In this document: piece after piece, positions 6,853 through 39,163 of the stretch
Layout of the letters: every line of letters begins with the position of its first letter
Numbering within the stretch: position 1 is the stretch's first letter
Assembly (NCBI GenBank): GCA_021323795.1
Contig: JAJPKH010000306.1
Location: 11,221 to 75,220, forward strand
Source of the DNA: Acidiferrobacteraceae bacterium
Lineage (GTDB): Bacteria > Pseudomonadota > Gammaproteobacteria > Acidiferrobacterales > Sulfurifustaceae
Direction of reading: 5' to 3'
Length of the DNA stretch: 64,000 nt
The notes under the pieces: model-generated
Told to the model about the DNA's origin: nothing
Databases searched by the model: none
What the model saw: the letters and a program-made list of their open reading frames with translations, nothing else
Made by a program: the position numbers and the translations under genes

Positions 6853-7917
6853 TTACGGCCGATGCGGCGCTTCCGCTGCCGGGTGGCGGCGAAACGCGAG
6901 AAAGAGCAGGAGTACAGCACCTACGCTGATACCGGCATCCGCCAAGTTGAACGCCGGCCAATGGGCGTTGCCCCAGTGAAAATCGAGCCAATCGACCACC
7001 GCTCCGCGCACCACGCGATCAAATACGTTGCCGAGCGCGCCGCCGAGAATGAGCGCAAACGCGGCTTTTTCCATCGCCATGGACCGCACGGACCGAATCA
7101 ACCGCACCAGCACATAAGATGCCGCGATACCGATTATCATGAAAAGCGGACTTTGCCAACCGCTCTCCCGACTTAGCAGACCGAATGCCGCGCCGGTGTT
7201 TTGCCAGTAAACCAGATTGAAGAAATCGGTAACTGCGACCGTATCGTGCAAAGGTAAGGCGAGCACTACTGCGCTCTTGCTCGCTTGATCCAACACAAAT
7301 ACCGCCAGCGCGCCGAAGAGCGCGAGACCGGCGACACGATCCTGCTCTGCGATCCGAAACAGTCGCTGCGCCAGCCAGCCAGCCGCCAGACCGCATCCAT
7401 AGCCGGCAACTACATCGGCCGGGAAGTGAATGCCCGACCAGACGCGCGACCACCCGACGGCGAGTGCGAAGAGAACAAGTGCGGAGCGCATACGCGTTCC
7501 AGACAAGGGCCAAAGCGATGTCGCCAGCAAGGCGGCAAAGGCGGCGTGACCACTCGGCAGGCTGTAACGCGGCTCGCTACCCGGTAACAAATGGATCGCT
7601 TGCGGGCCAAAGACAGCGGACGGACGGGGGAAATCTAACGCGACCTTGAGATCGCCGATCAGCACGACGCCGATCGCATACCCGAGCGAGAAGGACCAGA
7701 GCGCCCAGCGTAGCTCCTGCGCCCGTGGCGCCTGCCCGGCTCGCTGCTCCTTCCAGACGAGAAACAATCCGACGGCCACGTACAGCGGAAACGAGCGGTA
7801 GTCGCCTGCGATGCCGAGTACACGCGCGATGGTATCGAGCACCGGGGCATCGAACCCGTTGAGCGCCAGAAGCAACTGCTGGTTCCATCCGAACCAGTCG
7901 TAGAGGATTGCTTTCAT
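6853..7917 (-). CDS. pbrBC: Fusion of a PAP2 undecaprenyl-pyrophosphate phosphatase-like domain and signal peptidase II (PbrB/PbrC-type)
   Basis: PAP2 motifs KVALDFPRP, PSGH and SRVWSGIHFPADV in the N-half. LspA motifs NTGAAFG and FNLADAGI in the C-half. Start MKAILYDWFGW overlaps the pbrA stop (TAATG). Confidence 0.85.
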   Translation of the reverse strand: MKAILYDWFGWNQQLLLALNGFDAPVLDTIARVLGIAGDYRSFPLYVAVGLFLVWKEQRAGQAPRAQELRWALWSFSLGYAIGVVLIGDLKVALDFPRPSAVFGPQAIHLLPGSEPRYSLPSGHAAFAALLATSLWPLSGTRMRSALVLFALAVGWSRVWSGIHFPADVVAGYGCGLAAGWLAQRLFRIAEQDRVAGLALFGALAVFVLDQASKSAVVLALPLHDTVAVTDFFNLVYWQNTGAAFGLLSRESGWQSPLFMIIGIAASYVLVRLIRSVRSMAMEKAAFALILGGALGNVFDRVVRGAVVDWLDFHWGNAHWPAFNLADAGISVGAVLLLFLAFRRHPAAEAPHRP

Positions 7918-10343
7918 TATTGCCGCAGCAGGCGCAGACCGTTCGCAACGACGATCAGACTTGCGCCCATGTCCGCGAATACCGCCATCCACATGGTCGC
8001 CATGCCGACAACCGTGAGGCCGAGGAACACCGCCTTGATGCCGAGCGCGAGCGTAATGTTTTGCTTGAGCACCGCCGCAGTCTTTTGCGATAGCCGGATG
8101 AAGCTCGGGATCTTACGCAGGTCATCGTCCATGAGCGCGACGTCCGCGGTTTCTATTGCCGTGTCGGTGCCGGCGGCGCCCATGGCGAAGCCGATGTCGG
8201 CCTTGGCGAGCGCGGGCGCATCGTTAATCCCATCACCCACCATCCCAACACGGCCGCTCCTCGCCAGCTGCTCGATCGTCGTAAGCTTGTCCTGCGGCAG
8301 CAAGTTGCCGCGCGCTTCATCGATGCCGACTTCTTTGGCAATCGCCTCGGCGGTGTGTACGTTATCGCCGGTGAGCATGACGGTCCGTACGCCGAGCGCA
8401 TGCAGATCGGCGATCGCTTGGCGGCTCGACTCCTTCACCGTGTCGGCAACCGCGATAAGCGCGTGCACGCGCTTATCGCTTGCGAGCATCACCGCCGTTT
8501 TGCCCTGGCGCTCAAGCCGATTGAACCTCGCCTCGAGATCCGTCGAGCACTGACCGCGTTCCTCTATCAGGCGATGATTGCCAAGAACATACCCGACACC
8601 GTTCACTCGGCCGGCGACGCCACGGCCAGGGAGCGCCTCGAAGTCGTCGACTTCGGCGAGCGTGGTTCCCTCGGCCTGCGCAGCCTTTGTGATGGCTACC
8701 GACACGGGATGGTCCGAGCGCGCCGCGAGACTCGCGGCAACGCGCTTGGCAGTTTCCGGGGAACCGTCATCGAGCACCATGAAGTCGGTGCGCGCCGGGC
8801 GGCCGTGCGTGATCGTGCCGGTCTTGTCGAGCGCGAGCAGGATCAGACGGCGACCTTCTTCCAGATATACGCCACCTTTAATAAGAATACCCTTGCGTGC
8901 AGCGGCAGCCAGTCCGCTGACAATCGTCACCGGTGTGGAAATCACGAGCGCGCAGGGGCAGGCAATCACGAGCAGCACCAGCGCCCGATAGATCCAATCC
9001 AACCAAGCGCCGCCGAACGCCAGCGGCGGTACGATCATGACCGCGAGCGCGATGGCAAATACAACCGGCGTATAGATGCGCGCGAACGCATCGACGAACC
9101 GTTGCGTGGGCGCGCGGCTACCTTGCGCCGCTTCGACCGCATGGATGATGCGGGCGAGCGTGGAGTCGGTAGCCAAGGCAGTTACCCGATACTCAAATGA
9201 GCCCGCCTGATTGATCGTTCCGGCGAATACCGGATCGCCCCCGGCTTTCTCTACGGGCAGGCTCTCGCCGGTGATCGGCGCCTGGTCGACGGTCGAGCGC
9301 CCAGCCACGATTTGCCCGTCAAGCGCGATGCGCTCGCCCGGCTTCACCCGAACGACGGCCCCCAGCCGGACAGTATTCGTGTCCACCTCGGCCCAGCCGC
9401 CGTCCTCCTGCTTCACCGTCGCGGTATCGGGCGCAAGATCGAGCAACCCGCGGATGGCATTGCGTGCGCGGTCGAGTGACTTCGCCTCGATAACCTCGGC
9501 GAGCGCGAACAGGAACATCACCATCGCCGCCTCTGGCCACTGGCCAATCAGCATCCCGCCCGTCACCGCAATCGACATGAGCGCGTTCATGTTGAGGTTG
9601 CGGTTCTTTAGCGCGATCCAGCCTTTCTTATAAGTGGGGAGACCCCCGGTGAAGATAGCGAGCAATGCCAGCGCGATGACTGTCCAGTGGTTGCCCCCGA
9701 TAAACCAGTAAACCGCTTCGGACATCACGGCAGCGGCACCGGAGACAGCCATCGGCCACCAGTTTGTCTGCGTCGTTTCGCTCTCCACTTCCGCATGCAG
9801 CGGCGCGGTCGCGTCGTTCGCCGCGGGGCGCTTCTCGACGTCAAATCCGAGCGATTTCAACGCCGCGAGCACGGCAAGCAATGCGCCCGGCCTATGCTCG
9901 AGCGTCAAGGTGCGCTGGACCAGGTTGAACTCAAGCCCGCTGACGTCCGCCATGCCGCTAAGCTTGTTTCGGATCAGCGCTTCCTCGGTCGGGCAATCCA
10001 TCTTGGCGATGGCGAGGACGGTCCGCTCGCCGGTCGTCGGCCCCGTTTGACGCACGGCCCGCATGCCGATCGCGGCGAGCGCCTCGTCCACCGGCCCTAG
10101 TGACGGCAGGGAATGCGACACCGTCAGCGTGCGTTGAACCAGATTGAATGTCAGCTCGTCTATGCCGCCGATGCGAGAGAGTTTGTCGCGGATGAGCGCC
10201 TCTTCCGTCGGGCAGTCCATATTGTCGATACGGTAGACCGCAGCAGCCGGGTGTCTTACTGCCACGGTAGGCGTGACCACCGCCGCCGCGCCGCCACAAC
10301 TACAGTCTTGCGCTTCTTGTTTACTCATGGCTCGCCCCGTCAA
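7917..10343 (-). CDS. pbrA: P1B-type Pb/Zn/Cd-translocating ATPase (PbrA/CadA/ZntA type)
   Basis: Two N-terminal HMA domains each carry DCPTEE rather than CxxC. Also ACPCALVISTP, DKTGTITHG, HP in SDHPVS, and [10 protein letters not shown]. An alternative start is MSKQEAQD at 10328. Confidence 0.92.
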   Translation of the reverse strand: MTGRAMSKQEAQDCSCGGAAAVVTPTVAVRHPAAAVYRIDNMDCPTEEALIRDKLSRIGGIDELTFNLVQRTLTVSHSLPSLGPVDEALAAIGMRAVRQTGPTTGERTVLAIAKMDCPTEEALIRNKLSGMADVSGLEFNLVQRTLTLEHRPGALLAVLAALKSLGFDVEKRPAANDATAPLHAEVESETTQTNWWPMAVSGAAAVMSEAVYWFIGGNHWTVIALALLAIFTGGLPTYKKGWIALKNRNLNMNALMSIAVTGGMLIGQWPEAAMVMFLFALAEVIEAKSLDRARNAIRGLLDLAPDTATVKQEDGGWAEVDTNTVRLGAVVRVKPGERIALDGQIVAGRSTVDQAPITGESLPVEKAGGDPVFAGTINQAGSFEYRVTALATDSTLARIIHAVEAAQGSRAPTQRFVDAFARIYTPVVFAIALAVMIVPPLAFGGAWLDWIYRALVLLVIACPCALVISTPVTIVSGLAAAARKGILIKGGVYLEEGRRLILLALDKTGTITHGRPARTDFMVLDDGSPETAKRVAASLAARSDHPVSVAITKAAQAEGTTLAEVDDFEALPGRGVAGRVNGVGYVLGNHRLIEERGQCSTDLEARFNRLERQGKTAVMLASDKRVHALIAVADTVKESSRQAIADLHALGVRTVMLTGDNVHTAEAIAKEVGIDEARGNLLPQDKLTTIEQLARSGRVGMVGDGINDAPALAKADIGFAMGAAGTDTAIETADVALMDDDLRKIPSFIRLSQKTAAVLKQNITLALGIKAVFLGLTVVGMATMWMAVFADMGASLIVVANGLRLLRQ

Positions 10344-10360
10344 CGAAACTATGTTTGCAC

Positions 10361-10391
10361 ATTAGAAACCCTCTAGTTACTCTAGAGTCAA
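10361..10391 (-). promoter_or_regulatory. MerR-type promoter/operator for pbrA: -35 TTGACT, 19-bp spacer carrying the dyad CTCTAG-N5-CTAGAG, -10 TCTAAT
   Basis: The minus strand reads TTGACTCTAGAGTAACTAGAGGGTTTCTAAT. From memory, this closely resembles the PpbrA operator of Cupriavidus metallidurans. It lies between the divergent pbrA and pbrR. Confidence 0.7.
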
Positions 10392-10407
10392 GAATCCTGA
10401 GGCTCTT

Positions 10408-10893
10408 ATGCGAAACGCGCTTAAAATCGGTGAACTCGCCAAGCACACGGGATGTGACGTCGCCACTATCCGGTACTACGAGCAAGCAGGGCTATTGCCT
10501 AAACCCGCCCGCTCGGACGGAAATTTCCGACTCTACGGAGATTCCCAAGTTGAACGCCTGGCGCTGATCCGTCGTTGCCGTTCCCTGGACATGACGCTCC
10601 TGGAGATTCGCACGTTACTGCGTTTTTGCGATGCGCCCGAAAGGAACTGTGGTGACGTCAACGCTCTGCTCGAGGAGCACATCAGTCATGTGGCAGATCG
10701 CATAGCCGAGCTCAGACGACTGGAAAAAGAGCTTAAGAACCTGCGCCGGCTGTGCCAGGACACGCAAGCGGCTAAACACTGCGGGATACTGGAGGGCCTC
10801 TCAAAAGGGGCGGCCGGCTCACGGCGCCGGAAGGCGCTGGTCGGGCATGTGCATCGGGCGCACGCACCCCGTCGGAAGGCAAAATCGGCGTAA
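10408..10893 (+). CDS. pbrR: MerR-family Pb(II)/Cd(II)-responsive regulator (PbrR/CadR type)
   Basis: N-terminal HTH MRNALKIGELAKHTGCDVATIRYYEQAGLLP. Conserved Cys at ERNCGD and in the C-terminal KHCGIL. Divergent from pbrA. Confidence 0.88.
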   Translation: MRNALKIGELAKHTGCDVATIRYYEQAGLLPKPARSDGNFRLYGDSQVERLALIRRCRSLDMTLLEIRTLLRFCDAPERNCGDVNALLEEHISHVADRIAELRRLEKELKNLRRLCQDTQAAKHCGILEGLSKGAAGSRRRKALVGHVHRAHAPRRKAKSA

Positions 10894-10948: not shown

Positions 10949-11353
10949 CTAGACCCTCTGCAACGACGCAATCAACGGACAGGAAATGCGTCGCCGACGC
11001 GTGTGGCACTCTCGCACGAGCGCGGCCAACGTGCTTTCGATGCGTTGCAGCTCCGAGAGACGCCGGCGCACGTCCTTCAGTTTCTGCTCCGCGATGACAC
11101 GCGCATCCGCACAATGCAACCCGTCATCGAGCTTCAAGAACAGCGCAACTTCATCGAGACGAAAGCCGAGCGCCTGAGCGGTCTTGATGAAGCGCACACG
11201 GGCGAGATCCTCCTCTCCATACCGGCGTATGCCACCCGCGGGTTTGCGCGGTGTCCCGAGCAATCCGCGCCGCTGGTAGAAGCGAATCGTCTCCACAGTG
11301 ACGGTCGCCGCGCGCGCGAGCGCACCGATAGTCATGGCAAATTCCATCTTCAT
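10949..11353 (-). CDS. merR: Hg(II)-responsive transcriptional regulator MerR
   Basis: [32 protein letters not shown]...GLHCADA...[17 protein letters not shown] reproduces the MerR HTH and its three metal-binding Cys. The longer 200-aa ORF is an upstream extension I do not believe. Confidence 0.92.
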
Positions 11354-11358
11354 TCCGC

Positions 11359-11389
11359 TTGACTCCGTACTTAAGTACGGCGCTAAGCT
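11359..11389 (+). promoter_or_regulatory. mer operator/promoter: -35 TTGACT, 19-bp spacer with dyad CCGTAC-TTAA-GTACGG, -10 TAAGCT
   Basis: TTGACTCCGTACTTAAGTACGGCGCTAAGCT lies between the divergent merR and merT. Its layout matches the classic Tn501/Tn21 merOP. Confidence 0.8.
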
Positions 11390-11423
11390 TAGCGCGGTGA
11401 TGTGAAATGTGGAAAGAACCGCG

Positions 11424-11774
11424 ATGAATGAAAAGAGGAACGGTGGCCCGATGCTGGCCGGCGCGGGCCTCGCCGCGCTGCTCGCCTCGGCCTGCTGCAT
11501 CGGTCCGCTCGTCCTCGTGTCGATAGGGCTCGGCGGCGCGTGGCTGAGCAATCTTCAGGCGCTGGAACCCTATCGTCCGGTCTTCATTGGCGTTGCGCTG
11601 AGCGCGCTCGCGGTTGCCTACCGGCGCGTCTTTCGGCCGGCGGCCGCGTGTGCGCCGGGCGATATATGTGCGATCCCGCGTGTTCGGATCGCCTACCGAA
11701 TTATCTTCTGGCTCGTCGCCGCGCTCATCGCGGTGGCGTTTGGATTTCCGTACCTCGCGCCGCTCTTTTATTGA
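11424..11774 (+). CDS. merT: Mercuric ion transport protein MerT
   Basis: [20 protein letters not shown] (vicinal Cys in TM1), a second Cys pair in CAPGDIC, and C-terminus [13 protein letters not shown] at 11409 is an alternative start. Confidence 0.92.
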
Positions 11775-11783
11775 GATACCGCC

Positions 11784-12062
11784 ATGCGTAAAGTCGTTCT
11801 TGCCGTATTGCTCGTAGCCGCCCTGCCCTTGTCGGCGCCCGCCGCCCCACGAACCGTGACGCTGTCGGTTCCCGGCATGGATTGTCCTGTCTGTCCGATC
11901 ACCATCAAGAAGGCGCTAAGCCGGGTAAACGGTGTCGCCAAGGTCGATGTCAGCGTCGAGAAGCACGAAGCGACGGTCACCTTCGACGATACCAAGACCA
12001 ACGTCGAGGCGCTGCGAAACGCCACGGCGAACGCGGGCTACCCTTCGACGGTGAAGCCGTAA
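11784..12062 (+). CDS. merP: Periplasmic mercury-binding protein MerP
   Basis: Signal peptide followed by an HMA fold with VPGMDCPVCPITIKKAL. Confidence 0.93.
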   Translation: MRKVVLAVLLVAALPLSAPAAPRTVTLSVPGMDCPVCPITIKKALSRVNGVAKVDVSVEKHEATVTFDDTKTNVEALRNATANAGYPSTVKP

Positions 12063-12430
12063 TGGCGGCGGACGCGAAGCTGACGGAAATCGATCCCGCG
12101 CTCGGCTTGCTCGCGCCTTTCGCGAAGGTGACCAAGGGCACGACGGCGAGCATTAGCAGAATGCGCGAAACCGCGCTCTACACCGATGGCCACTTCACCG
12201 CGAAGACCAAGGTGCTGGCGGCAATGCTCTGGAGCATCTCGGCCCGGTGCGAGCCGTGCATCAACTACTACGCCGGCAAGGCCAAAGCACTCGGCGCGAC
12301 GGACGAGGAAGTCGGCGAGTTCCTCGCCATCGCGAGCACCATGGGCGGGTGCGTGGGCGAGATGTGGGCGCTGAAGGCTTACGCGGCATTCACGGAGGGG
12401 ACAACCGACGCTGCCGCATGCTGCCCATGA
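12062..12430 (+). CDS. Carboxymuconolactone decarboxylase/AhpD-like protein with a CxxC motif and a C-terminal vicinal Cys pair
   Basis: TAKTKVLAAMLWSISARCEPCINYYAGKAKALGATDEEVGEFLAIAS matches the CMD/AhpD core. The protein ends ...DAAACCP. The ATG overlaps the merP stop (TAATG). Confidence 0.78.
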   Translation: MAADAKLTEIDPALGLLAPFAKVTKGTTASISRMRETALYTDGHFTAKTKVLAAMLWSISARCEPCINYYAGKAKALGATDEEVGEFLAIASTMGGCVGEMWALKAYAAFTEGTTDAAACCP

Positions 12431-12457
12431 ACGCACGTGCCGGCCAAGGAGCGAGCC

Positions 12458-13807
12458 ATGGCAACAACGTATCAGCTTGTCGTTATCGGAACCGGGACCG
12501 CGGCGATGGTCGCCGCGACGCGCGTGCGCACCGCCGGCTGGCGCGTCGCGGTCGTTGATTTTCGCCCGTTCGGCGGCACGTGTGCGCTGCGCGGCTGCGA
12601 TCTGAAAAAGATGCTCGTCGGCGGAGCGACGGCAGTGGATCATGCACGCCGCATGCGCGGCAAGGGCGTCGCCGGCGAATTCCATATCGACTGGCCGGCG
12701 CTCATCGCTTTCACGCGTGGCTTCACCGATCCTATCCCGGAAAAGCATGAGGAGCGCTACAGGGAGAAAGGCATCGATACGTATCACGGCCGAGCGCGGT
12801 TTACCGGGCGTCACACGCTCACCGTGGACGACGGCCACATATTGGAAGCCGAGCATATCGTGATCGCTACCGGCGCCGAGGCGGCCAAGCTCGGCATTCC
12901 CGGCGAGGAGCACTTGATCACGAACGAGGAGTTTCTGAGCCTCGAAACACTGCCGCATCGCATCGTATTGGTCGGCGGCGGCTACATCGCGGCCGAGTTT
13001 TCCCACATCGCCGCACGCGCCGGCGCGAAGGTAACGATCCTGCAGCACGGCGAGCGCCTGTTAAAGCACTTCGACCCGGACCTGGTCGATTGGCTCATGG
13101 AGAAATTTCGGGCGCTCGGCATCGACATGCGCACGCGCACGACGGTCGAAGCGATCGAACGAACCGAGACCGGCTACCGGGTGCGCGCGACCAGCGAAGG
13201 CCGCGACGTTGACGTCGACGCCGATTGCATCGTCCATGCAGCGGGCCGAGCGCCTGCCCTCGAAACCCTCGAGCTCGACGCCGCCGGCGTGGCGGTCGAG
13301 CGCGGCCGCCTCAAGCTCAACGAGTATTTGCAGAGCGTCTCCAACCCGGCCGTGTATGCCGCGGGCGACGCCGCCCAGATGGGGCCCCCGCTAACGCCGG
13401 TATCGAGCCACGACGCCAAGGTGGTCGCCGCCAATCTGCTCGAGGGCAACCGTCACAAGCCCGACTACAGCGGGGTGCCGAGTGTCGCGTTTACTATTCC
13501 ACCGATCTCGGCTGTCGGCATAAGCGAGGCGCAGGCGCGTCGCCAGGGGATCAAGTTCCGTGTCAAAAGCGAGCAGGCATCCGGTTGGTTTACCGCGCGG
13601 CAAGCCGCGGAACCGACGTACGGCTTTAAGGTGCTGATCGACGAGGCGAGCGACCGCGTGCTCGGCGCACACCTGGTCGGGCCGCATGCGGACGAGACCA
13701 TCAATATCTTCGCGCTCGCCATTCGTCATGGCCTTACAACCGCGCAGCTCAAGACAACGATGTTCGCCTATCCCACCGCTGCCTCGGACCTCGGATACAT
13801 GCTGTGA
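12458..13807 (+). CDS. Class I pyridine nucleotide-disulfide oxidoreductase. It is a core-only MerA-like or glutathione-reductase-like enzyme with no NmerA domain and no C-terminal Cys pair.
   Basis: FAD motif VVIGTGTAAM, redox dithiol GGTCALRGCDLKK, NAD(P) motif VLVGGGYIAAE, and a dimerisation domain ending FAYPTAASDLGYML. AAGGAG sits 6 nt upstream of the ATG. Confidence 0.85.
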   Translation: MATTYQLVVIGTGTAAMVAATRVRTAGWRVAVVDFRPFGGTCALRGCDLKKMLVGGATAVDHARRMRGKGVAGEFHIDWPALIAFTRGFTDPIPEKHEERYREKGIDTYHGRARFTGRHTLTVDDGHILEAEHIVIATGAEAAKLGIPGEEHLITNEEFLSLETLPHRIVLVGGGYIAAEFSHIAARAGAKVTILQHGERLLKHFDPDLVDWLMEKFRALGIDMRTRTTVEAIERTETGYRVRATSEGRDVDVDADCIVHAAGRAPALETLELDAAGVAVERGRLKLNEYLQSVSNPAVYAAGDAAQMGPPLTPVSSHDAKVVAANLLEGNRHKPDYSGVPSVAFTIPPISAVGISEAQARRQGIKFRVKSEQASGWFTARQAAEPTYGFKVLIDEASDRVLGAHLVGPHADETINIFALAIRHGLTTAQLKTTMFAYPTAASDLGYML

Positions 13808-14004: not shown

Positions 14005-14415
14005 ATGGGTACGGTCCGACACATCCGCCCGCTTCAGTTACTGCGCCAACACCGGCGCGGCTTCGCGCTGCTAATGCTCGGCGTCATGATGATCTGGCTC
14101 GGGGCAGCCCTCGTACGCTGTCTTTTCGATATGCCGGCTGCGTCACCGGCCGCTAACGCGGCCATGGTCGATATGGGCTCCGAACCGGCGGTCGCCAGCA
14201 TGGCGCCGTGCGCCGCCTGCACCATGGGAACCGAGTCGAGATCGCTGGACGATCTCGGCGTCATTCCCGCTAGCCCGAAACTGTGGTCCGTACTCGCGCT
14301 TGTCCTGGTCAGCGCGCTGCTCGCCGTTAATTTCCCGAAGCGCGTTCCTATCCCCCCACTGCCGCTGCTGCCGAAGCGACCACGCACCTTAAAGTTCTAC
14401 GCCCTGCGTATTTGA
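14005..14415 (+). CDS. Small membrane protein heading the copper supercluster, with a CxxC motif and a Pro-rich tail
   Basis: 136 aa with TM FALLMLGVMMIWLGAALV, APCAAC, a second TM LWSVLALVLVSALLAV, then PIPPLPLLPKRPR. Confidence 0.4.
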   Translation: MGTVRHIRPLQLLRQHRRGFALLMLGVMMIWLGAALVRCLFDMPAASPAANAAMVDMGSEPAVASMAPCAACTMGTESRSLDDLGVIPASPKLWSVLALVLVSALLAVNFPKRVPIPPLPLLPKRPRTLKFYALRI

Positions 14416-37014: not shown

Positions 37015-37710
37015 TCAAAGCGCAAGCACTGGAATAACCACGAAGTAGGCGTTCAGCATATAGAGACCGGAGAGTATCAAAAGTAATCCTCCGACGATCT
37101 CGAATACGTGCTGTCGGTGACCGAGCCACCGTAGGCTTTGCAACCACCCAATCGCCACGGCGCCGATCAGGATCGGCACAGCGCGGCCGATCGCAAAGGC
37201 GAGCGTGAGCGTGGCACCAAATACGGGAGAGCCAATTCCGGCCGCGACGCCTAACACGACGACCAGTGCTGGCGTGCAAAACGGGCAGATAGCAACCGAG
37301 AACGGCACGCCGAGCACAAACGCGCCCCATGCAGTGGCCGCTGGCTTAGCGCGCATCCGTAACGTTGGAAGTGGTAGGCGCAACCACCCCGGCCACGTGA
37401 GACCGAGCACGATGAGAAGCGGTCCTAACACCAATCCCCATCCCCGCCCCATCAAGCGCTGCAACTCGCCGCCGCCAAGTCCAGCGGCGAAGCCGAGCAC
37501 GAGGTGCGTGATCAACATTCCGAGAATAAACATACCGCCGTAGAGGACCGCGCGATTTGTGGCATGGGCCTTGGTCGCATAAGCGAGCGACACGGGTATA
37601 GCGGCGAGTGCGACGGGATTGAAGCTGAAAACGAACCCGAGCAAAAAACCGGCGCCGAGCGAAAGCAACGTCGCTTGCTCGAGGGTTTGCCGCAGCGATT
37701 CGATATCCAA
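37015..37710 (-). CDS. CcdA/DsbD_2-like transmembrane thiol-disulfide transporter
   Basis: 231 aa with six TMs. Has FSFNPVALAAIPV and AICPFCTPALVVVLG. Last gene of the long minus-strand operon. Confidence 0.78.
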   Translation of the reverse strand: MDIESLRQTLEQATLLSLGAGFLLGFVFSFNPVALAAIPVSLAYATKAHATNRAVLYGGMFILGMLITHLVLGFAAGLGGGELQRLMGRGWGLVLGPLLIVLGLTWPGWLRLPLPTLRMRAKPAATAWGAFVLGVPFSVAICPFCTPALVVVLGVAAGIGSPVFGATLTLAFAIGRAVPILIGAVAIGWLQSLRWLGHRQHVFEIVGGLLLILSGLYMLNAYFVVIPVLAL

Positions 37711-37721
37711 GCGTTAGTCCT

Positions 37722-37994
37722 TTAACTGCGGGAAAGACGCGCTTCAAGTGCTTTACGAAGCTTCGCGGCCGTAGGTAATGTCGGGAAAACAAGTTCGCCA
37801 TCGAGTGCGATCGCCGGCGGCGCGGTGACGCCTAGGTCGACGGCATAGTCGATCTCTTTCAGAATATCGACCTCTCGCCAGAGCACTTTCCCCGTACCGA
37901 ACTCCTCGGCGACGGCGCGCAAGCTATCCTTGACGACGGCACATTTACTGCAGCCCTGCGTGAAGAACAACTCGATCCGTATCTTTGTTGCCAT
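37722..37994 (-). CDS. Small thioredoxin-fold protein (glutaredoxin/Thioredoxin_3-like)
   Basis: MATKIRIELFFTQGCSKCAVVKDSL has a CxxC after beta1. About 90 aa. Confidence 0.75.
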   Translation of the reverse strand: MATKIRIELFFTQGCSKCAVVKDSLRAVAEEFGTGKVLWREVDILKEIDYAVDLGVTAPPAIALDGELVFPTLPTAAKLRKALEARLSRS

Positions 37995-37996
37995 CA

Positions 37997-38506
37997 CTAA
38001 CCGGTGCGGTTCTTCCGCGGCTTGGTCATGGTATTTTCGAGTGCCGCTAGGATCGGGCAGGCATCGAGCGGCTTCGATGTGTCGTTACAGATCCGTATCA
38101 GCTCGTTCAGCACAGCGGACATCGTTTGAAATGTCCGAATCTTCGTTTCGAGCGCGAGCATCTTTTGGACCGCGACGGTACGAACGTCCCGGCAGCACGC
38201 GGCATTTTTCACCTTGAGCGCGAGCAGCTCGCGGATCTCGCGCAGCGAGAAGCCGCACTCCTGCGCGTGTTTAATGAACCGTATGCGCGGCAGCACGTCG
38301 TTGCTGTATAGCCGGTAACCGGCCGCACTTTTCTTCGTCGGTGCTAGCAGGCGTTCTTCTTCATAGTAACGCAGCGTGTCACGGCTTATCTCGGAAAGCT
38401 CGGCGATCTTACCAATCGTCAACAGAGGCTCCGGTCCTTGCGGACGGTCCTTTAGCAACCGTAGAGGCCGCGATCTCGACGCTCGCCGTTCGATGTTGGC
38501 TTTCAT
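37997..38506 (-). CDS. MerR-family metal-responsive regulator with a MerR-like Cys pattern
   Basis: HTH LTIGKIAELSEISRDTLRYYEEERLL. Cys in KNAACCRD and CNDTSKPLDACPIL (C-x9-CP, as in MerR). ATGA overlap with merP. Confidence 0.85.
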   Translation of the reverse strand: MKANIERRASRSRPLRLLKDRPQGPEPLLTIGKIAELSEISRDTLRYYEEERLLAPTKKSAAGYRLYSNDVLPRIRFIKHAQECGFSLREIRELLALKVKNAACCRDVRTVAVQKMLALETKIRTFQTMSAVLNELIRICNDTSKPLDACPILAALENTMTKPRKNRTG

Positions 38507-38787
38507 GGCTTGAGCGTGGACGGGAAGCCCGCGTCGGCGGTCGCTTTGCGAAGCGCATCGGTGTTTGTTTTTGCGTCGTCAAAGGTGACCGTCGCTTCCC
38601 TCTTCTCGAAGCTCACATCGGCTTTGCTAACGCCGTCAACGCGCGTCAACGCCTTTCGCACCGTCAGTGGACACACCTGGCATTGCATACCGGGCACCGA
38701 GAGCGTCACCGTCTTGGTGGCTGCGGTTACCGGTACTGCCACAAGGACTAGGACGGCGAGGATGGCGAAATTGGACACCTGCTTCAC
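38503..38787 (-). CDS. merP: MerP-like periplasmic metal-binding protein (second copy)
   Basis: GTG start preceded by GGAGAAGG, a signal peptide, and VPGMQCQVCPLTVRKAL. Confidence 0.87.
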   Translation of the reverse strand: MKQVSNFAILAVLVLVAVPVTAATKTVTLSVPGMQCQVCPLTVRKALTRVDGVSKADVSFEKREATVTFDDAKTNTDALRKATADAGFPSTLKP

Positions 38788-38797
38788 AAACCTTCTC

Positions 38798-39163
38798 CTA
38801 ATAAAAGAGTGGGGCGAGATACGGAAATATCGCCGCAACCGCGAGCAGCGTGGCGACGACCCAAAACAGAATTCGGTAAGTCGATCGCGTCGCCGGAATC
38901 GCGCACACGGCGGCCGGCTCGCAGGCGTCGAGTGGTCGAAAGATCGGTCGATACGCAAAGAAGAGCGCAACGACCGCGATACCAATAAAAATCGGCTGAT
39001 ACGGAGTGAGCCTAGTTAACAAACCCATCCAGACACCGCCGATGCCAACCGACACCAGCGCAAGGGGCGCGACACAACACGCGGAGGCCAAAATAGCGGC
39101 GAGGCCGCCACTGGCGAGTGCCGTGCCGCCCGTGCTCGTGGGTTTCTTTACCGTGGCGCTCAT
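38798..39163 (-). CDS. merT: MerT-like transporter (second copy)
   Basis: [36 protein letters not shown]. Roughly 60 percent identical by eye to the copy at 11424-11774. Confidence 0.92.
   Translation of the reverse strand: MSATVKKPTSTGGTALASGGLAAILASACCVAPLALVSVGIGGVWMGLLTRLTPYQPIFIGIAVVALFFAYRPIFRPLDACEPAAVCAIPATRSTYRILFWVVATLLAVAAIFPYLAPLFY

Follow-up and report, generated by a model that had tools for sequence, protein, structure and literature searches.

We describe a mer operon (10949–13807) within a 64,000-nt stretch of DNA from an Acidiferrobacteraceae bacterium (contig JAJPKH010000306.1; the whole stretch is called the window in the following), in which merP is directly followed by a gene for an AhpD/CMD-fold protein (cmd) and a gene for a flavoprotein disulfide reductase (flav). 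The CMD protein belongs to a family with a conserved C-terminal Cys-Cys pair (CMD-CC), which is found next to merT and merP in many phyla and is apparently an undescribed accessory component of the mer system. With moderate confidence we propose, as one joint reading, that the CMD protein accepts Hg(II) in the cytosol after MerT and would pass it to whichever reductase is present without being an obligate subunit of it, and that cmd and flav are independent accessory modules, not two halves of one enzyme. In the searchable literature, outside of which most subscription journals lie, neither a description of an AhpD/CMD gene in mer operons nor experimental data on the family were found; two candidate papers (PMC12366330, PMC10781756) turned out to be unrelated and not prior descriptions of such a gene.

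The mer operon and the CMD-CC family

The operon and its regulator comprise the following features (window coordinates):

10949–11353, minus strand: merR, Hg(II)-responsive regulator, 134 aa, divergent from the operon
11359–11389, plus strand: MerR-type promoter/operator between merR and merT, exact pattern match
11424–11774, plus strand: merT, inner-membrane Hg(II) transporter, 116 aa (Pfam and NCBIfam MerT)
11784–12062, plus strand: merP, periplasmic Hg(II)-binding protein with GMDCPVC, 92 aa (NCBIfam TIGR02052)
12062–12430, plus strand: cmd, CMD/AhpD-fold protein, 122 aa (Pfam CMD), overlapping merP
12458–13807, plus strand: flav, core-only flavoprotein disulfide reductase, 449 aa (match to PDB 8k40; Pfam Pyr_redox_2 and Pyr_redox_dim)

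The merT product reaches 148.2 bits against Pfam MerT and 169.6 bits against NCBIfam MerT (cut-off 150) and carries a Cys-Cys pair in the first transmembrane segment plus a cytoplasmic C-x5-C pair, and the merP product scores 124.1 bits against the MerP family TIGR02052 (cut-off 92.55). The merR product remains below its NCBIfam cut-offs (PRK13752, 183.8 versus 261 bits; TIGR02051, 150.1 versus 150.85 bits); its three Hg-ligand Cys positions are present, HCADAR being among the motifs. Between merR and merT, TTGACT (11359–11364) and TAAGCT (11384–11389) are separated by a 19-nt spacer, inside which lies the dyad CCGTACTTAAGTACGG (11365–11380; arms CCGTAC and GTACGG around TTAA). The MerR operator pattern TTGACNCCGTACNNNNGTACGG was matched exactly, the chance expectation of this pattern search being 0 matches. 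A generic sigma-70 scan with 16–18 nt spacing found no promoter, because the 19-nt spacer of the mer promoter lies outside this range, and no convincing terminator was found after 13807. With a perfect operator and bona fide merT and merP, the operon merT-merP-cmd-flav is, as far as its sequence tells, under MerR/Hg(II) control, in agreement with the first-pass annotation of this DNA, which had placed both cmd and flav in a merR/merT-merP operon. The ATG of cmd and the TAA of merP share one base (TAATG), coupling cmd translationally to merP, whereas flav, whose ATG (12458) follows the cmd stop at a distance of 27 nt, has a ribosome-binding site of its own (AAGGAG, 6 nt upstream of the ATG).

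The CMD protein scores 48.7 bits against Pfam CMD (PF02627; cut-off 23) and carries CEPC at residues 63–66, Tyr70, an MGGC motif with Cys97 and a Cys120-Cys121-Pro end, the two Cys codons (12419–12424) being followed by Pro and the stop (Cys-Cys-Pro at 12419–12427). A homologue search unveiled 595 homologues. Among the 120 best of them CEPC is retained in 118; in 117 the final 8 residues include a vicinal Cys pair, which lies slightly further in for the other three. In 30 diverse members C63-E-P-C66, Y70, M94-G-G-C97-V-G-E and C120-C121 are invariant, and the 7–15 residues ahead of the Cys pair vary in length and sequence. Because the Cys-Cys tail and CEPC are kept at these frequencies within a variable tail, they do not reflect chance, and the Cys-Cys end pointed out in the first-pass annotation is a real and strongly conserved feature. 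A profile search against 1.84 billion representatives delimited a compact family of 9 clusters at E ≤ 1e-30 and 95 at E ≤ 1e-10, which is marked by CEPC...Y; weaker profile matches revert to the CxxC...H of AhpD/CMD proteins. The window protein holds all marks of the family, namely CEPC, Tyr70, MGGC97, the C-terminal Cys-Cys and adjacency to merT and merP.

The AlphaFold2 model of the CMD protein (pLDDT 88) is all-helical, with a low-confidence tail after helix 81–112 that carries the Cys pair, and the best Foldseek match, 5dik (probability 1.00, TM 0.70–0.76), identifies the CMD fold. Alignments of hidden Markov models to 5DIK, 1VKE/1P8C and 7Y4R place Tyr70 at the position of the catalytic His (CxxC-x3-H) and Cys97 where the solved CMD proteins have Gly or Ser; in 5DIK and TM1620 (1VKE/1P8C) a Glu precedes the first Cys by 12 residues, and the CMD protein has Val51 there (Val or Ala in the family). 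With the AhpD/CMD family (lpg0406, TM1620, RclX and M. tuberculosis AhpD) the CMD-CC proteins share the all-helical fold and a CxxC that starts the same helix, but they differ from it by Tyr70 for His, Val/Ala for Glu, an invariant Glu-Pro within CxxC, the extra Cys97, the vicinal Cys pair on a flexible C-terminal tail and a linkage to merT/merP instead of peroxiredoxins. Judged from these alignments, the CMD-CC family retains an AhpD fold without its proton relay (Glu...His replaced by Val/Ala...Tyr) but with an additional third Cys, a Tyr and a mobile pair of Cys, a residue pattern that would, we infer, suit the binding of thiophilic metals better than peroxide chemistry. The NCBIfam models with the highest scores, none of them anywhere near its cut-off, describe AhpD domains of selenoproteins with a link to metal(loid)s, for example of an ArsM/AhpD fusion. 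Two other candidate comparisons were rejected. RclX (7Y4R) had been considered as a precedent for a CMD protein paired with an RclA-like enzyme; its structural match is weak (E ~0.2) and the literature describes an RclR-regulated peroxiredoxin-like protein and no such pairing. Apparent fusions of CMD to MerA, MerT or HMA were discarded as well, since the CMD part of the chimeras concerned (P0259 and P0279, with MerT and HMA domains) is truncated or out of register, so that they look like deletions or frameshifts.

The genomic context of cmd was analyzed in 80 loci, taken from one genome per species across many phyla, among them Proteobacteria, Bdellovibrionota, Armatimonadota, Acidobacteriota, Planctomycetota and Legionella. 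MerT or MerP is encoded within 1.5 kb of cmd in 65 of these loci and MerR within 2.5 kb in 60, and clustering of all neighbouring open reading frames (ORFs) revealed merT/merP and merR as the only conserved neighbours. In the usual layout, merR-merT-merP-cmd, cmd is the last gene of the operon; the order cmd-merR-merT was found in Legionella-like and some alphaproteobacterial loci. For 61 loci at least 2 kb are available on each side. Any flavoprotein is near cmd in only 11 of these, a Cys-less one (without C-terminal Cys pair) in 7, a canonical MerA in 5 and both in 2, while the remaining 50 hold no flavoprotein within about 6 kb; cmd adjoins canonical MerA as often as Cys-less enzymes. The canonical MerAs in the five loci possess an SCC (...LSCC) tail of their own, and NmerA is missing in 5 of the 6 full-length canonical MerAs found beside cmd. 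The direct order merP-cmd-flav with its 27-nt gap is confined to the window's close lineage (84% relatives; L167–L169 and L174), and the TAATG overlap of merP and cmd is preserved without any flavoprotein in the relatives L170–L173, including a cmd gene 70% identical to that of the window. Outside this lineage, the gene right after cmd in L072 encodes a Cys-less flavoprotein of 46% identity, and three Methylocella loci combine cmd in one operon with genes of 63–64%-identical Cys-less flavoproteins. The family also occurs in a model strain: on plasmid pMOL30 of C. metallidurans CH34 the 'incomplete' merRT-deltaP locus is directly followed by a CMD-CC gene (WP_011229335.1, ending in EPSCCQ; NC_007971.2 64955–65329, corresponding to L165 5989–6363), and CH34 also carries a canonical merA. 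The CH34 genome paper lists the merRT-deltaP locus as Hg transport of unknown function and does not mention the CMD-CC gene.

The flavoprotein and its relatives

The window flavoprotein (identical to the recorded 449-aa product P0121) carries its redox pair in GGTCALRGC (Cys42/Cys47, followed by Asp48), Tyr438 within FAYPT and a C-terminus, DLGYML, in a tail free of Cys; a Pfam scan found no HMA/NmerA domain. Its nearest solved structure is GbsMerA of Gelidibacter salicanalis (PDB 8k40), matched at E = 9.7e-116 over residues 4–449, the next PDB match following at 7.5e-64. It remains under every NCBIfam cut-off, with nearly equal scores for MerA (TIGR02053, 314.5 versus 454.45 bits) and for glutathione reductase (GR; PRK06116, 312.6 versus 480 bits); the further MerA model PRK13748 gave 192.7 versus 600 bits and the further GR model TIGR01424 285.9 versus 606. 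The His-Glu dyad of GR is replaced by Tyr438 and Ser443 (YPTAAS), and it is likewise replaced in GbsMerA (PMC10587081).

For comparison, the flavoprotein was aligned (MAFFT) with four canonical MerAs, to which it is 25–30% identical, and with 19 members of its own family; with the canonical MerA from its own contig it shares ~30% identity. Cys42/Cys47 align with GGTCVNVGC of the canonical enzymes and Tyr438, invariant in the flavoprotein family, with the Tyr of their FPYLT. The canonical MerAs run ~23 residues beyond the end of the flavoprotein, to LSCC, and tail Cys are absent in all 19 aligned family members. Moreover, His97 (PEKHE) fills the AKYE column that corresponds to Tyr264. The signatures used in a survey of MerA (Barkay/Boyd/Christakis, PMC8261052; RC607 numbering) are Cys207/Cys212, Cys628/Cys629, Tyr605 and Tyr264, of which the window enzyme has two, the redox Cys pair and Tyr605, and lacks Cys628/Cys629 and Tyr264; it is therefore not filed as a canonical MerA. 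The likeness to canonical MerA of the Tn501 or Bacillus RC607 type extends to the fold, the redox CxxxxC and the Tyr605-equivalent Tyr, and ends at the missing LSCC extension, the missing NmerA, His97 for Tyr264 and CALRGCD versus CVNVGCVPSK. By these features the window flavoprotein is a member of the GbsMerA-type core-only family (CALRGCD, Tyr for the GR His, neither NmerA nor C-terminal Cys), which from its sequence belongs to the group-1 flavoprotein disulfide reductases. The family is very large, since all of 8000 scored candidates lay at E < 1e-30, and its members are named 'glutathione reductase', 'dihydrolipoyl dehydrogenase family' or 'mercuric reductase' in the sources.

GbsMerA itself (PDB 8K40/8K41; Pardhe et al. 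2023, PMC10587081) has neither NmerA nor a C-terminal Cys-Cys pair; without any partner it oxidises NADPH, best with HgCl2, its Y437F variant is inactive, and it lessens Hg toxicity in E. coli. It is encoded in an operon of the order arsR-merT/P-GbsmerA-hypothetical without a CMD gene, and at the position equivalent to Tn501 Tyr100 it has Val96, a non-Tyr residue like His97 of the window enzyme (PMC10587081). Both proteins share GGTCALRGCD including the Asp after the second Cys, the Tyr (Tyr438 and Tyr437) in (F/S)YPT, an ...ML C-terminus, the lack of NmerA and C-terminal Cys pair and a gene position after merT/P in a metal-regulated operon. The window differs by its cmd gene and by Leu49 (CDLKK) in place of Pro (CDPKK), and the activity of its enzyme is putative. 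With GbsMerA, a mer operon enzyme that consists of a Cys-less core has thus already been published (PMC10587081), and the window gene is another member of that type. All sequence features listed in the first-pass annotation (GGTCALRGC, the DLGYML end, the lack of NmerA, CEPC, the CMD fold, Cys-Cys at 12419–12424 and TAATG) were recovered at the positions it had given, and its statement that MerA enzymes carry Tyr at the place of the GR catalytic His agrees with the alignment to FPYLT. The YPT motif, which it had put at 13769–13771, does provide Tyr at this place, although these coordinates cover the codon of Tyr438 alone; its description of a core-only, MerA-like enzyme holds for the Tyr and the missing Cys pair, but of the split architecture that it suggested as undescribed, the Cys-less core enzyme has a published counterpart in GbsMerA.

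From the side of the flavoprotein, a metagenome scan with the family alignment provided 80 loci (53–73% identity). MerP is adjacent in 43 and MerT in 37 of them, but none holds a CMD homologue, even at E = 10, although 61 of the loci extend at least 800 nt upstream. A second flavoprotein, 30–35% identical to the window enzyme and from this identity taken as a canonical MerA irrespective of its C-terminus, is near in 17 of the 80. This arrangement resembles that of MerK, a glutathione-reductase-like gene of alphaproteobacterial mer operons that stands alongside merA (Petrus et al. 2015 via PMC11227200) and is discussed as a thiol-recycling activity (PMC11227200). The likeness of the window family to MerK is one of genomic context, and the window operon differs from the MerK setting in having no merA itself. 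Where the Cys-less gene is the sole reductase, the gap between merP and the flavoprotein holds MerF or a GDCCVxC-domain protein. Such GDCCVxC-domain proteins (NCBIfam NF041374) were observed in this gap in L087, L093, L112, L140, L153 and L154. They end in a vicinal Cys pair, as does one MerF-like ORF (L109), and small proteins terminating in Cys-Cys may be a recurring theme beside Cys-less reductases. Like the CMD protein, the GDCCVxC (seleno)proteins and MerF are small and Cys-rich and occupy the slot between merP and the Cys-less flavoprotein, but they are related to it neither in sequence nor in fold, and MerF is a membrane transporter.

The flanks of the window were read on a 275,971-bp metagenome contig, of which the window represents positions 124,567–188,566. 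A canonical merR-merT-merP-merA operon (L083) lies ~4.6–8.3 kb left of window position 1, ~20 kb from the window mer operon, and encodes a MerA of 564 aa with an NmerA domain (GMTCHSC) and a C-terminal SCCAG. It is abutted by the convergent gene of P0201, a 73%-identical paralogue of the Cys-less flavoprotein, a placement that likewise recalls MerK; within the 64-kb window itself no second flavoprotein was found. Three small ORFs come after the canonical operon, and two of them resemble a split merB.

Proposed role of the CMD protein and alternative explanations

In the proposed role, MerP and MerT would carry Hg(II) across the membrane and the CMD protein would receive it as a cytosolic thiol acceptor. 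Its mobile Cys-Cys tail would take over the metal from the cytoplasmic Cys pair of MerT, a task that in the canonical system falls to NmerA or the C-terminal tail of MerA. Hg(II) might then be parked at a putative site formed by CEPC, Cys97 and Tyr70, so that the protein would buffer the metal before handing it to an available NADPH-dependent reductase. Candidate recipients in the window genome are the adjacent Cys-less flavoprotein, to which a hand-over within this operon is possible, and the canonical MerA whose gene lies ~20 kb away, either of them or both; most other genomes would have to supply a reductase from outside the cmd locus. As in NmerA and the MerA C-terminal tail, the two Cys are carried by a mobile element, which could pick up Hg(II) from MerT or cellular thiols and bring it to a buried redox site. 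The CMD protein is unlike NmerA in having an AhpD-like instead of an HMA ferredoxin-like fold and in being a separate polypeptide, and its transfer function is putative.

Several points weigh against this reading. We infer Hg(II) binding and transfer by the CMD family from motifs and genomic context only. Most CMD loci hold no reductase within 6 kb, and a pure shuttle makes little sense if there is no merA elsewhere in the genome. Concerning the possible recipient, the GbsMerA assays recorded NADPH oxidation and not formation of Hg(0), and ~20% activity was obtained with glutathione disulfide (GSSG; PMC10587081), for which reasons Hg(II) is only a candidate for the physiological substrate of the flavoprotein family. 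Furthermore, the window enzyme has Leu49 (codon 12602–12604), two residues after the redox Cys47, where Pro49 is nearly invariant in the family: C[DV]PKK is found in 18 of the 19 aligned members, including the 84% relative; the Leu and Pro codons differ by a single base (CTG versus CCG). The same protein is recorded from four contigs.

The first-pass annotation had suggested that flavoprotein and CMD protein may be a two-component mercuric reductase, in which the Cys-Cys tail of the latter replaces the C-terminal pair of MerA in trans; in a dedicated enzyme of this kind the flavoprotein would need the tail to reduce thiol-bound Hg(II). Such an enzyme would account for the missing ~23-residue LSCC extension, for the conserved Cys pair of the CMD tail and for the merP-cmd-flav order of the close lineage with its constant 27-nt gap, and L072 and the three Methylocella loci pair cmd with Cys-less flavoproteins as well; the different small proteins ending in Cys-Cys in other Cys-less operons (GDCCVxC, some MerF) would fit the same scheme. 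MerA variants mutated in the C-terminal Cys retain their activity on HgBr2 and lose that on Hg(SR)2, so that the HgCl2 activity of GbsMerA in vitro leaves an in-vivo need for a thiol partner possible. However, the survey for a constant pairing of cmd with Cys-less flavoproteins, whose absence the annotation itself had named beforehand among its refuting conditions, revealed no such pairing from either side: a CMD homologue is present in 0 of the 80 flavoprotein loci, and only 7 of the 61 fully flanked CMD loci hold a Cys-less flavoprotein, whereas 5 have a MerA with its own Cys-Cys tail and 50 lack any flavoprotein. In addition, cmd is coupled to merP instead of flav, and GbsMerA, whose operon contains no CMD gene, is reported to be active alone (PMC10587081). 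As co-conservation fails in both directions, an obligate split MerA is not supported, and we consider a dedicated two-component enzyme very improbable.

Alternatively, neither protein might handle metal at all, the CMD protein acting as a thiol-disulfide oxidoreductase or peroxidase of AhpD type in the repair of thiol or oxidative damage by Hg(II), and the flavoprotein as its NADPH-dependent reductase. Mycobacteria offer an analogue, in which Lpd/DlaT reduce AhpD. The AhpD/CMD fold with its CxxC motif and the neighbouring flavoprotein disulfide reductase with a redox-active Cys pair are compatible with this role, as are the measurable GSSG reductase activity of GbsMerA (PMC10587081), the protection against thiol-reactive oxidants by related CMD proteins such as RclX, and the GR-like MerK of mer operons in its discussed role as a thiol recycler (PMC11227200). 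Against it stand the family-wide replacement of the AhpD proton relay (His by Tyr70, Glu by Val/Ala) and the conserved Cys97 and vicinal Cys tail, which have no part in AhpD chemistry; moreover, the family is tied to Hg importer genes and not to a reductase or peroxiredoxin, and for most of its members the flavoprotein is not nearby. We therefore judge a pure repair function to be decidedly unlikely. A further explanation regards the CMD protein as the end-point of reductase-free merRTP-cmd cassettes, where it would sequester Hg(II) or reduce it by its own dithiols and be recycled by cellular disulfide reductases, here by the adjacent flavoprotein. Import of Hg(II) without a cytosolic sink is harmful, and for this reason the last gene of the operon should provide one; 50 of the 61 fully flanked cassettes lack a flavoprotein within about 6 kb, the operon usually stops after cmd, and each 122-aa chain offers five conserved Cys plus the Tyr. 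Yet both genomes that were inspected in this respect, the window contig and C. metallidurans CH34, carry a canonical merA elsewhere, seven CMD loci adjoin canonical MerA, stoichiometric sequestration by a small protein would be a weak resistance mechanism, and we know of no enzymatic precedent for a thiol-driven reduction of Hg(II). An end-point function is thus an unlikely explanation, and it appears equally doubtful that the CEPC/Tyr/Cys-Cys AhpD-fold family forms the unrecognised core of a second type of mer cassette, merR-merT-merP-cmd, without a dedicated flavin reductase. The role as a cytosolic Hg(II) acceptor, independent of the flavoprotein gene, remains the reading that we prefer.

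Surrounding genes and implications

A metal island surrounds the operon, extending over 7917–10893 on its left and from 14005 to about 23900 on its right:

7917–10343, minus strand: Cd/Zn/Pb-type P-type ATPase
10408–10893: CadR/PbrR regulator
14005–14415: ORF of 136 aa without Pfam match
right of the operon, to about 23900: genes for CtaG/Cox11, SCO1/SenC, cytochrome c, DsbA, thioredoxin-like and DsbD_TM proteins and a multicopper oxidase

In addition, a second mer-like cluster without a reductase was observed on the minus strand at 37015–39163:

39163–38798, minus strand: merT
38724–38503, minus strand: merP
38503–37997, minus strand: MerR/ZntR-like regulator, 168 aa, with an AACC motif
37994–37722, minus strand: MJ0307/MTH895-type thioredoxin with CxxC
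37707–37015, minus strand: DsbD_TM/ArsG-like permease

A module of a MerR-like gene, Thioredoxin_3, an ORF of ~202 aa and DsbD_TM also stands beside merRTP-cmd cassettes on unrelated contigs (L170–L173). L167 holds a partial module without the MerR-like gene, consisting of DsbD_TM, Thioredoxin_3 and a DUF7482 ORF beside a P-type ATPase.

The mer operon is the textbook operon of metal detoxification, and genomic and metagenomic predictions of Hg cycling draw on its gene content. The usual signature-based screens for merA, in which the C-terminal Cys pair and Tyr264 are obligatory, miss the very large GbsMerA-type family, which in the present sample occurs in mer operons about equally often without as with a canonical merA. 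The mer-linked thiol protein family, in turn, recurs in at least seven phyla, including the position beside the merRT-deltaP locus on pMOL30 of C. metallidurans, and is a candidate for the step from MerT to the reductase where the latter lacks NmerA, lacks the C-terminal Cys or is encoded elsewhere. The mer paradigm is not overturned by these results; the CMD-CC family may instead offer a handle on the path of Hg(II) from MerT to the reductase, also in the model strain CH34.

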